Below, one piece after another: positions 37,482 to 38,024 of a stretch of 64,000 bases of DNA. The notes beneath the pieces were generated by a model. It ran no database searches and was not told where the DNA came from. It saw nothing but the letters and a program-made list of their open reading frames with translations. The DNA comes from Escherichia phage Jgk1. The translations under genes were made by a program, and so were the position numbers. Position 1 is the stretch's first letter, and each line of letters begins with the position of its first letter. The stretch is taken from the sequence record PV292302.1. The stretch is one strand, 5' to 3'.

Positions 37482-37610
37482 TCCAGGATATCAGCACTAG
37501 GTATAGCCATAATGTAATGCGCAACAGTTAAGGTAAGCCAACAAGTGTTTGGTTGATGTAGTCAGGGTTCATGGCCTGATTAGAAGGTTCGATTCCTTCT
37601 CCTGGAACCA
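37482..37610 (+). ncRNA. Aberrant tRNA-like element A (129 nt)
   Basis: Perfect 7-bp acceptor tccagga/tcctgga, canonical T-arm gaagg-ttcgatt-ccttc, ACCA end; ~50 nt excess internal sequence with 8-bp hairpin, no clean D or anticodon arm. Confidence 0.4.
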
Positions 37611-37695
37611 ATTCAAAGTAGCACTGTATCTTTAAATGTTTCCCGGCATTCAAAGCACACACCGTGACAGTGCTACCCTGAATTGAAAGAATTAT

Positions 37696-37757
37696 GGGGG
37701 CGAGGTCGTTAATACGACGGCGTAAGTACCAGATGAGACTTCTGGACGCCCCTACCA
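37696..37757 (+). ncRNA. Aberrant mini tRNA-like element C (62 nt)
   Basis: 7-bp acceptor gggggcg/cgcccct then ACCA; two internal hairpins (gtcg-ttaata-cgac; ccaga-tgagact-tctgg). Confidence 0.3.
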
Positions 37758-37893
37758 CATTCTGAACCAGTAAAGAAACATCCGAACTAACTATTAACTC
37801 TTAATGAGTGAAATAAGAAGTCCCCAAGGGGTTGGGTGAGATAACGCTATATCTGAGGAAGCAGGTAAGAATCCTGCATGGTTCACCAGTTAA

Positions 37894-38024
37894 GTCCGTT
37901 TAGCTCAGGGGTTAGAGCACGAGAGCCAAAGCATCGTTTCTACTTCGGTAGACAGCCTAGCTGGTCAAACGACAACGACTCGGTGTGAGGCCAGAGGTCA
38001 TTGGTTCAAATCCAATAACGGACT
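37894..38024 (+). ncRNA. Aberrant tRNA-like element B (131 nt), tRNA with ~55-nt insertion in anticodon region
   Basis: Perfect acceptor gtccgtt/aacggac, canonical D-arm tagctcaggggttagagc, T-arm attgg-ttcaaat-ccaat; insert has UUCG tetraloop hairpin and cagc-cta-gctg hairpin. Confidence 0.4.

Follow-up and report, generated by a model that had tools for sequence, protein, structure and literature searches.

Probable non-decoding tRNA mimics without an anticodon arm in the tRNA cluster of Escherichia phage Jgk1

We have analysed a 64,000-nt stretch of DNA from Escherichia phage Jgk1 (sequence record PV292302.1; this whole stretch is called the window here, and position 1 is its first letter), in which three transfer RNA (tRNA)-like elements, designated A, B and C, lie on the + strand in the order A, C, B, downstream of five true tRNA genes (Table 1). 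The phage is N4-like, of the G7C/Gamaleyavirus type: its closest DNA matches are in the Schitoviridae (e.g. Shigella virus Moo19 and N4-like phages of Escherichia and Klebsiella), and the position of a 3,447-aa open reading frame (ORF) on the - strand (39876-50219) agrees with that of the virion RNA polymerase gene. The five canonical tRNAs score 62-69 bits with the Rfam model RF00005 and CCA is encoded in all of them. ARAGORN and Rfam at gathering threshold agree in calling these five tRNAs and no others, so that A, B and C go uncalled. Downstream of the tRNA genes, the ~1.45 kb from 36845 to ~38295 contain no credible ORF (the longest have 85 and 76 aa), and the small ORFs overlapping this island gave no family match in PHROG. 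From the tRNA genes up to the following ORF, the + strand has a single terminator-like site, an intrinsic terminator at the end of the island.

The three elements were found on the + strand, where an earlier note, made from the letters of the sequence, had placed them. A strict scan (T-loop TTCRANN, all 5 T-stem pairs and all 7 acceptor pairs, with acceptor strands 45-175 nt apart) returned six matches for the whole window, every one of them on the + strand within 36349-38023; they correspond to four tRNAs plus A and B. The - strand gave none, and the mean in 200 shuffles was 0.165 matches per window. Seven acceptor pairs on five T-stem pairs are also found in C, in this case with the non-canonical loop UGAGACU and a 1-nt spacer. 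Minimum-free-energy folds recover the stems of the three elements; the fold z-score is -2.15 for A, -2.65 for B and -3.19 for C. The perfect 7-bp acceptor stem and canonical T arm that the earlier note had read in A and B are present in the sequence, as are the textbook D arm and the UUCG tetraloop hairpin of B. Its description of the cores as abnormal does not apply to B, whose core is that of a complete tRNA in which just the anticodon arm has been swapped; in A, both the D arm and the anticodon arm are missing. The view of C as a mini-helix with a 7-bp acceptor stem, two hairpins and ACCA also stands, with an extra A ahead of the acceptor strand and with the qualification that the T-loop is non-canonical.

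Element A is a four-way junction formed by the acceptor stem, a 71-nt rod, a conserved hairpin (P3) and the T arm. We have found eight members of this family, which score 111-142 bits with covariance model R2: the window copy and those of Escherichia phage VTCCBPA_322, Pectobacterium Cbunavirus phages, Klebsiella Stephanstirmvirinae myophages, Erwinia phage Gungnir39 and two IMG/VR contigs. They span four unrelated lineages of Enterobacterales phages, and every member adjoins tRNA genes. RNAalifold analysis of the eight sequences revealed covariation in the acceptor stem at pairs 1-72 (U-A, A-U, G-U), 2-71 (C-G, U-A) and 7-66. At its base, the rod covaries too (A-U to C-G; U-G, C-G, U-A). The rod itself is 69-81 nt long and lineage-specific in sequence, always forming a long irregular hairpin. 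P3 is near-invariant, with UCAUG contained in its 8-nt loop, and the T arm is followed by N-CCA. A pattern scan aimed at enlarging the family recovered two contigs, both already known.

Element B retains all the positions of the tRNA tertiary core (U8, A14, G18G19, G15-C48, G22/G46 and T-loop U54-A58) and carries, in place of the anticodon arm, a module of ~67 nt made of a long helix and three hairpins. Its conserved strand AACGACU is able to pair with the 5' strand UCGUU instead of P1. The family-B insert contains a conserved duplication, AACGAU-UCGAU, through which the 5' strand AUCG(UU) can pair in two registers: the distal register gives a continuous helix with AACGAUU single-stranded in the junction, and the proximal one a perfect four-way junction without linkers. 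According to constrained folding, the two registers are ~0-3.6 kcal/mol apart in 19 of the 20 members; this near-equality in energy suggests, short of proof, that family B is a two-state RNA. A K-turn or sarcin-ricin mimic at the junction (CGAGAG in B) was also considered and rejected, as this motif varies among members (CAAGAG, CGAGCG, CAAAAG, CUAGAG).

The first relative of B was found by blastn in Pseudomonas phage Littlefix (74% identical), where the acceptor and T stems are wholly different in sequence and their pairing is kept. The conserved motif ATCGTTTCTAC-N4-GTAGAC was used as a family-B seed in IMG/VR and yielded 18 true members, and a longer version of it led to 13 metagenome contigs. 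With the covariance model of the family (R1), 26 matches scoring 85-150 bits were aligned, of which 20 are distinct sequences. Across these 20, all seven acceptor pairs and three of the five T-stem pairs of the chassis are changed on both sides, and the covariation score of the family (0.354, against a shuffle mean of 0.102) was reached in none of 500 shuffles. The covariation of the insert was parsed by hand and showed that pairs of three helices covary in the payload as well. Its second P1 pair is found as G-C, C-G, U-A, A-U and G-U; hairpin b as AGC/GCU, GC/GC, CC/GG, ACU/AGU and UGC/GCA; hairpin c as GUC/GAC and GGC/GCC; and the mid helix as GCC/GGC, GGG/CCC and GGC/GCC. In the first alignment of the family, with 13 sequences, U8, A9, G10, U12, C13, A14, G18, A21, G22, A23 and C25 were invariant. 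Acceptor stems and discriminators (A, G, U or C) vary freely, so no single amino-acid identity is conserved in the family.

Members of family B are located in tRNA arrays and ARAGORN calls none of them. Their carriers include three lineages of N4-like phages, represented by the window phage, by Littlefix and by a 70-kb contig with a shared virion RNA polymerase neighbour, as well as contigs of 134-866 kb and non-mobilizable plasmids of 96-115 kb from Escherichia coli (E. coli), E. albertii and Salmonella, whose size and gene content suggest that they are phage-plasmids. In the E. coli plasmid records a B homologue of 133 nt lies between tRNA-Tyr and tRNA-Ser and bears the RefSeq label "tRNA-OTHER", and the insert of the window B is 93.5% identical to the version of E. 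coli plasmids of ~113 kb. The exact family-B motif gave 10 matches in 100,044 bacterial and archaeal species genomes (one each), all of them chance matches without tRNA context and several inside ORF-like sequence. When the cargo of B was compared with the E. coli chromosome, including ribosomal RNA and tRNA, for similarity and complementarity, no chromosomal match was obtained and only the plasmid homologues appeared. A second, independent seed (GACAACGA...GGTC....GGTTC) returned 101 stretches, and in the 80 new loci among them the R1 matches were ordinary tRNAs and, as the one exception, an aberrant type unrelated to the family, so that family B hardly extends beyond what the first seed had shown.

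Element C is a three-way mini-tRNA in which one extra A separates the T stem from the acceptor strand. Homologues are present in 25 phage records, all of them G7C-like or Klebsiella N4-like phages, with conservation of the linker GCGUAAGUA and of the T-like hairpin. Compensatory changes were found in Klebsiella phage vB_Kpn16-P2, where the acceptor pair G4-C69 becomes A4-U69, and in Klebsiella phage K60PH164C1, where C-G is replaced by G-C at the third pair of hairpin 1. Neither family A nor C has any match in 5,426 complete E. coli genomes, which indicates that they are not host-derived.

With a conserved architecture whose stems covary, no anticodon arm, a distribution restricted to phages and a position on the tRNA strand in a stretch without any credible ORF, the three elements are, in our opinion, probably processed, functional, non-decoding tRNA mimics. 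A single precursor transcript ending at the terminator would probably contain them together with the five true tRNAs. The helix of acceptor and T arm is what RNase P reads, and 3' maturation in E. coli stops at an encoded CCA. The acceptor stem stacked on the T arm, together with the D arm and elbow core in the case of B, would be the part read by the host maturation machinery. Because that part is kept, the three elements would be expected to leave the precursor as stable RNAs of ~60-130 nt with tRNA-type ends, released by RNase P together with the enzymes of 3' trimming and CCA repair. In each family the anticodon arm would have been exchanged for a module of its own: a long helix capped by a four-helix junction in B, the UCAUG-loop hairpin and the long variable rod in A, and one hairpin with the conserved linker in C. 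None of the three is able to read a codon, so the tRNA part would serve as a chassis for processing and stability and the module as the working part, which most likely would act in trans by binding a factor of the host or of the phage, serving as decoy, sponge or regulator of something that handles tRNAs.

An anti-defence role takes a minority share of this proposal, and the link to tRNA-targeting host defences put forward in the earlier note is speculative. Its most elaborate form concerns B, which could be a natural tRNA-scaffolded effector whose bistable four-helix-junction module binds and neutralises a small signalling molecule or a conserved bacterial factor, for instance a toxin or a defence nuclease directed at tRNAs. 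B would then be an RNA anti-defence sponge passed horizontally between N4-like phages, enterobacterial plasmids (96-115 kb) and contigs as long as 866 kb. We consider this specific idea rather improbable as it stands.

Several observations weigh against the elements being functional mimics. Shigella virus Moo19 carries a deletion of ~1.2 kb, from tRNA-Ile to the 3' part of B, by which A, C, the tmRNA-like tag module described below and most of B are gone; as Moo19 is viable, the elements are dispensable at least on its isolation host. The 3' end of B is U followed by CCC, with no encoded CCA. An all-against-all blastp of the ORFs around B members found synteny within lineages only and no gene shared across lineages. 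Finally, the covariation rests on few events in two of the families, with 8 distinct sequences in A and ~8 in C.

The best of the alternatives, which we still regard as unlikely, is that A, B and C are nothing more than cis-acting punctuation for processing or stability and that the released pieces are functionless. Punctuation of this kind has precedents in mitochondrial tRNA punctuation and in mascRNA of MALAT1, and it would agree with the organisation of the region as a dense one-strand mosaic of structured modules with a single terminator, with long framing helices between modules that are interchangeable among related phages. However, an acceptor stem and a T arm are all that punctuation requires, and it leaves unexplained the 93.5% identity of the B payload with that of plasmids, the covariation of its payload helices and the near-invariance of P3 in A across unrelated phage families.

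The earlier note had also raised the possibility of interrupted tRNA genes, from which a small intron or a self-cleaving, ribozyme-like insert would be removed to give a decoding tRNA. The body of B is a perfect tRNA, its insert is at the usual position of tRNA introns, and the plasmid homologue, of 133 nt, is given by the Prokaryotic Genome Annotation Pipeline (PGAP) as a tRNA whose type is undetermined. However, in most B members five nucleotides on the D-stem side (C-R-A-G-A) face three on the variable-loop side (C-A-G) and only the anticodon-stem pair 27-43 survives, so that no deletion gives a 5-bp stem with a 7-nt loop; in the window copy, positions 27-31 (CGAGA) and 39-43 (GCCAG) can form 2-3 pairs. 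A and C are without any candidate anticodon arm. Furthermore, a cmscan of 36300-38400 against Rfam 15 (E<=10) gave no group I or II intron match on A, B or C and no match to hammerhead, twister, twister-sister, pistol, hatchet or hepatitis delta virus (HDV)-like ribozymes, and no bulge-helix-bulge motif (3-nt bulges flanking a 4-bp helix) was seen in the structure of B. The inserts, of ~55-70 nt, are far shorter than the known bacterial tRNA introns, which are group I introns of ~200 nt or more, and the bulge-helix-bulge splicing endonuclease is not known from bacteria. The free variation of acceptors and discriminators in family B, with no amino-acid identity to conserve, is also contrary to a decoding product. 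As there is no anticodon arm to rebuild and no intron or ribozyme match, this reading fails and that of non-decoding mimics stands; we hold interrupted tRNA genes to be very unlikely.

Slightly less credible still are decaying or chimeric pseudogenes, produced by recombination between tRNA repeats and carried neutrally. Such events do take place in these clusters, since the tRNA-Ile annotated in Moo19 (L044, 1163-1235) is a chimera of a tRNA-Ile 5' part and a B 3' part joined at GAGGTC, whose acceptor strands (GCTTCAT/AACGGAC) are unpaired, and in the window the element at 37108-37178 folds poorly (z-score -0.77). For A, B and C, in contrast, compensatory substitutions keep the acceptor and T stems paired across distant phages, which is the opposite of neutral decay. 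The comparison of homologues proposed as a check in the earlier note did reveal compensatory changes for the three elements, and its view of them as tRNA-mimic RNAs rather than decayed pseudogenes is in line with the homologues in other phages and the covarying pairs of each. The least probable of all is that the elements belong to a multi-piece system resembling transfer-messenger RNA (tmRNA), in which CCA-ending elements would give the acceptor domain in trans to the tag module at 36847-37245: this module has an Rfam tmRNA_permuted match (34.7 bits, E 8e-5), a tag ORF (ANDDVVLMAA*) conserved in nine phages with synonymous codon changes and no recognisable acceptor stem of its own, but A, B and C of the window are without the G3-U70 pair needed for alanine charging, no complementarity to the tag module was found in them, and the module was not seen in some phages that have family A or B.

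Table 1. Coordinates of the tRNA genes, of elements A, B and C with their parts, and of associated features in the window
Feature	Position	Strand	Evidence
tRNA-Tyr-GTA	36349-36430	+	ARAGORN, Rfam RF00005
tRNA-Asn-GTT	36432-36506	+	ARAGORN, Rfam RF00005
tRNA-Pro-TGG	36512-36588	+	ARAGORN, Rfam RF00005
tRNA-Gln-TTG	36691-36766	+	ARAGORN, Rfam RF00005
tRNA-Ile-GAT	36769-36844	+	ARAGORN, Rfam RF00005
Element A, 129 nt	37482-37610	+	Sequence, fold, 8-member family
A acceptor TCCAGGA/TCCTGGA (7-bp Watson-Crick)	37482-37488 / 37600-37606	+	Sequence, fold
A variable rod P2, 71 nt	37489-37559	+	Fold; covariation of P2 base
A hairpin P3 GUCAGG/CCUGAU, 8-nt loop GUUCAUGG	37560-37581	+	Fold, family conservation
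A T arm GAAGG-TTCGATT-CCTTC	37583-37599	+	Sequence, fold
A discriminator A; encoded CCA	37607; 37608-37610	+	Sequence
Spacer between A and C, 19-nt inverted repeat (37609-37627 / 37667-37685), 89% complementary	37609-37685	+	
Element C, 62 nt	37696-37757	+	Sequence, fold z-score -3.19, homologues
C acceptor GGGGGCG/CGCCCCT	37696-37702 / 37747-37753	+	Sequence, fold
C hairpin 1	37705-37718	+	Sequence, fold
C conserved linker GGCGUAAGUA	37719-37728	+	Sequence, homologues
C T-arm-like hairpin CCAGA-UGAGACU-UCUGG	37729-37745	+	Sequence, fold
C A; CCA	37754; 37755-37757	+	Sequence
Element B, 131 nt	37894-38024	+	Sequence; 136 bits with family model R1
B acceptor GTCCGTT/AACGGAC	37894-37900 / 38017-38023	+	Sequence, fold
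B D arm GCTC-AGGGGTTA-GAGC	37903-37918	+	Sequence, fold
B payload	37925-37991	+	Family alignment, pair tables, RNAalifold
B mid helix GCC/GGC	37925-37927 / 37989-37991	+	Family alignment, RNAalifold
B P1 GCAUCG/CGGUGU	37931-37936 / 37981-37986	+	Family alignment, RNAalifold
B hairpin a UCUAC-UUCG-GUAGA (contains CTAC-TTCG-GTAG)	37939-37952	+	Family alignment, RNAalifold
B hairpin b CAGC-CUA-GCUG	37953-37963	+	Family alignment, RNAalifold
B hairpin c GUC-AAAC-GAC	37964-37973	+	Family alignment, RNAalifold
B conserved strand AACGACU	37974-37980	+	Family alignment
B variable loop AGGTC (AGGUC)	37995-37999	+	Sequence
B T arm ATTGG-TTCAAAT-CCAAT	38000-38016	+	Sequence, fold
B discriminator U	38024	+	Sequence
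Intrinsic terminator, 11-bp stem then TTTTTATTT	38259-38298	+	Promoter/terminator scan

The sequences between the elements are also structured. The inverted repeat of the spacer between A and C makes a long helix around a 39-nt insert; it begins within the CCA of A and stops 10 nt before C, and in phage VTCCBPA_322 (L001, 1753-1880) the same framing arms surround a different tRNA-like element. This helix may be a processing site for a double-strand RNase or the boundary of a cassette. A sigma-70-like promoter match at 37664-37692 (GTGACA, 17-nt spacer, TG-extended AAGAAT; 9/12) ends 4 nt upstream of C, which might have a start site of its own there; promoter-like matches across the region are no more numerous than in shuffles. 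Downstream of B, at 38034-38100, there is a conserved non-coding block with the hairpin CACTGG-TAAGACAGT-CCAGTG, which is common to Moo19 (L044, 1240-1310) and VTCCBPA_322 (L001, 2393-2460).

No other part of the region is as widely conserved as the tmRNA-like module, which is present in ~200 phage records. Its tmRNA_permuted match is below the gathering score of 47, ARAGORN calls no tmRNA there and no acceptor stem with G3-U70 was found in it. The tag-type ORF (GCAAACGATGATGTTGTTCTGATGGCTGCTTAA, 36982-37014) varies among the nine N4-like phages (ANEEAYLMVA, ANDDVILMAA, ANDDVVLMVA), and this variation, with synonymous changes of Ala codons, points to a coding-type constraint. It is surrounded by a framing helix of 16 bp, by several hairpins that are conserved and by a 3' block that is invariant and contains the T-arm-like GCCAGG-TGGAATC-CCTGGC.

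Outside the range covered by the earlier note, we have found two further aberrant tRNA-like elements in the window. One of them, at 36595-36684 between tRNA-Pro and tRNA-Gln, is a fourth such element, with a fold z-score of -0.71, and is absent from Moo19. It has an acceptor stem GCGTCGT/GCGGCGT with three G-U pairs followed by A-CCA, a D arm, an anticodon stem TGGGT/ACCCA and the T-loop TGCAAGT; its 18-nt anticodon loop, with the hairpin CCGG-TAGCT-CCGG ahead of GTTAA, resembles an Asn-type loop into which 11 nt have been inserted. The other, at 37108-37178, is degenerate (T arm GGG-TTCGAAT-CCC) and occupies a variable slot of the tmRNA-like module where the tRNA-like inserts differ between phages, that of PBM-3 being annotated as tRNA-Cys and that of ECBP1 being called tRNA-Cys(aca) by ARAGORN. 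More tRNA-like families, absent from the window, exist in G7C-like phages (L001, 1636-1759; L162-L168; L030): one of ~124 nt at nine loci, with the acceptor TATCAGT/ACTGATA followed by A-CCA in VTCCBPA_322, and one of ~66 nt at five loci. These give weak scores of 15-23 bits on the family-A model, through the T arm and acceptor. Two IMG/VR contigs (L093, 224-349; L080, 4487-4611) carry an aberrant element with a D-loop hairpin CCCGC-TTGC-GGG and an expanded anticodon region, scoring 27 bits on the family-B model. In Littlefix (L002, 1418-1490), immediately upstream of the B member, there is an uncalled tRNA-like element with normal D and T arms, an anticodon arm shortened to CTC-TTAGCC-GAG and a partly paired acceptor.

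We found no description of families A, B or C in the literature; a large survey noted many tRNA-like candidates in IMG/VR generically (PMC10690425). If the three families are as we read them, at least three further families under structural selection make the stable RNAs of phage tRNA clusters a broader class than RNAC and RNAD of phage T4. Family B crosses very different types of phages with its cargo almost unchanged, and it makes the function of such RNAs testable, since its model is defined, 20 sequences are aligned and a culturable host setting of the E. coli type is available. In addition, annotators miss these genes or label them "tRNA-OTHER" or tRNAs with odd anticodons, by which the tRNA counts of phages are inflated or distorted. 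If the cargo turned out to act as a decoy against host immunity, tRNA-chassis RNA mimics would join the known counter-defence tools of phages.

That the tRNA clusters of phages contain stable RNAs of unknown purpose has been recognised since the 1970s, and the closest known analogues of A, B and C are RNAC (species 1) and RNAD (species 2) of T4. Like these RNAs of 119-139 nt, which are on the tRNA strand at the end of the phage tRNA cluster, A, B and C are located in the cluster on the tRNA strand, measure ~60-140 nt and have a tRNA-like 3' domain and no anticodon. RNAC also has a canonical T arm (CCGGG-TTCGAAT-CCCGG) with a hairpin just upstream, a partly paired acceptor-like stem and no anticodon arm. 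In contrast, just 5 of its 7 acceptor pairs form by our reading, whereas CCA is encoded in A and C and the tRNA core of B is complete. In the T4 locus model R2 matched only tRNA-Leu and tRNA-Thr, and neither rnaC nor rnaD, and blastn of the elements gave no T4 match. Both T4 RNAs are stable small RNAs of the tRNA cluster whose function is still unknown (PMC3014915, PMC9697503).

Among other known RNAs, ordinary tRNAs score 29-54 bits on model R1 by skipping the insert, in agreement with a B chassis that is homologous to tRNA; in the opposite direction, RF00005 gave no match to A, B or C even at E<=10. The tRNA-like domain of tmRNA resembles A and B in having an acceptor stem and T arm with a long helix leading to a functional domain at the position of the anticodon arm, and its ending in CCA is shared except by B, which does not encode it. 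However, the three elements, of 62-131 nt against ~360 nt, have no tag frame, pseudoknot ring or G3-U70 (pair 3-70 is C-G in A and B and G-C in C; one C homologue, that of K60PH164C1, does have G3-U70), B keeps a full D arm that tmRNA is without, and the Rfam tmRNA models gave no match on A, B or C. The other Rfam overlaps with the elements are at chance level (YrlA with 16 bits, bxd_1, PhrS and SpR08). YrlA (RF02553) is a non-coding RNA, reported from phages as well as from bacteria, with a tRNA-like module recognised by tRNA enzymes, and its topology is permuted, the 5' and 3' ends forming the Ro-binding stem and the acceptor-like stem being closed by a loop. In A, B and C, by contrast, the ends form the acceptor stem, and the YrlA match over the 5' part of B is far from the gathering score of 69. 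Intron-containing tRNAs, either bacterial with group I introns or archaeal with bulge-helix-bulge motifs, also have an insertion in the anticodon region, but the exons here rebuild no anticodon stem-loop, there is neither a group I core nor a bulge-helix-bulge, and the insert is conserved across unrelated tRNA bodies. Finally, in the engineered tRNA scaffold the anticodon arm is swapped for an aptamer, which allows stable expression in E. coli, and as in B the acceptor, D arm, T arm and elbow core are intact and the cargo sits on the anticodon stem, with the aim that cells process and stabilise it as they do a tRNA; the scaffold is synthetic, whereas B is natural, conserved and phage-borne.

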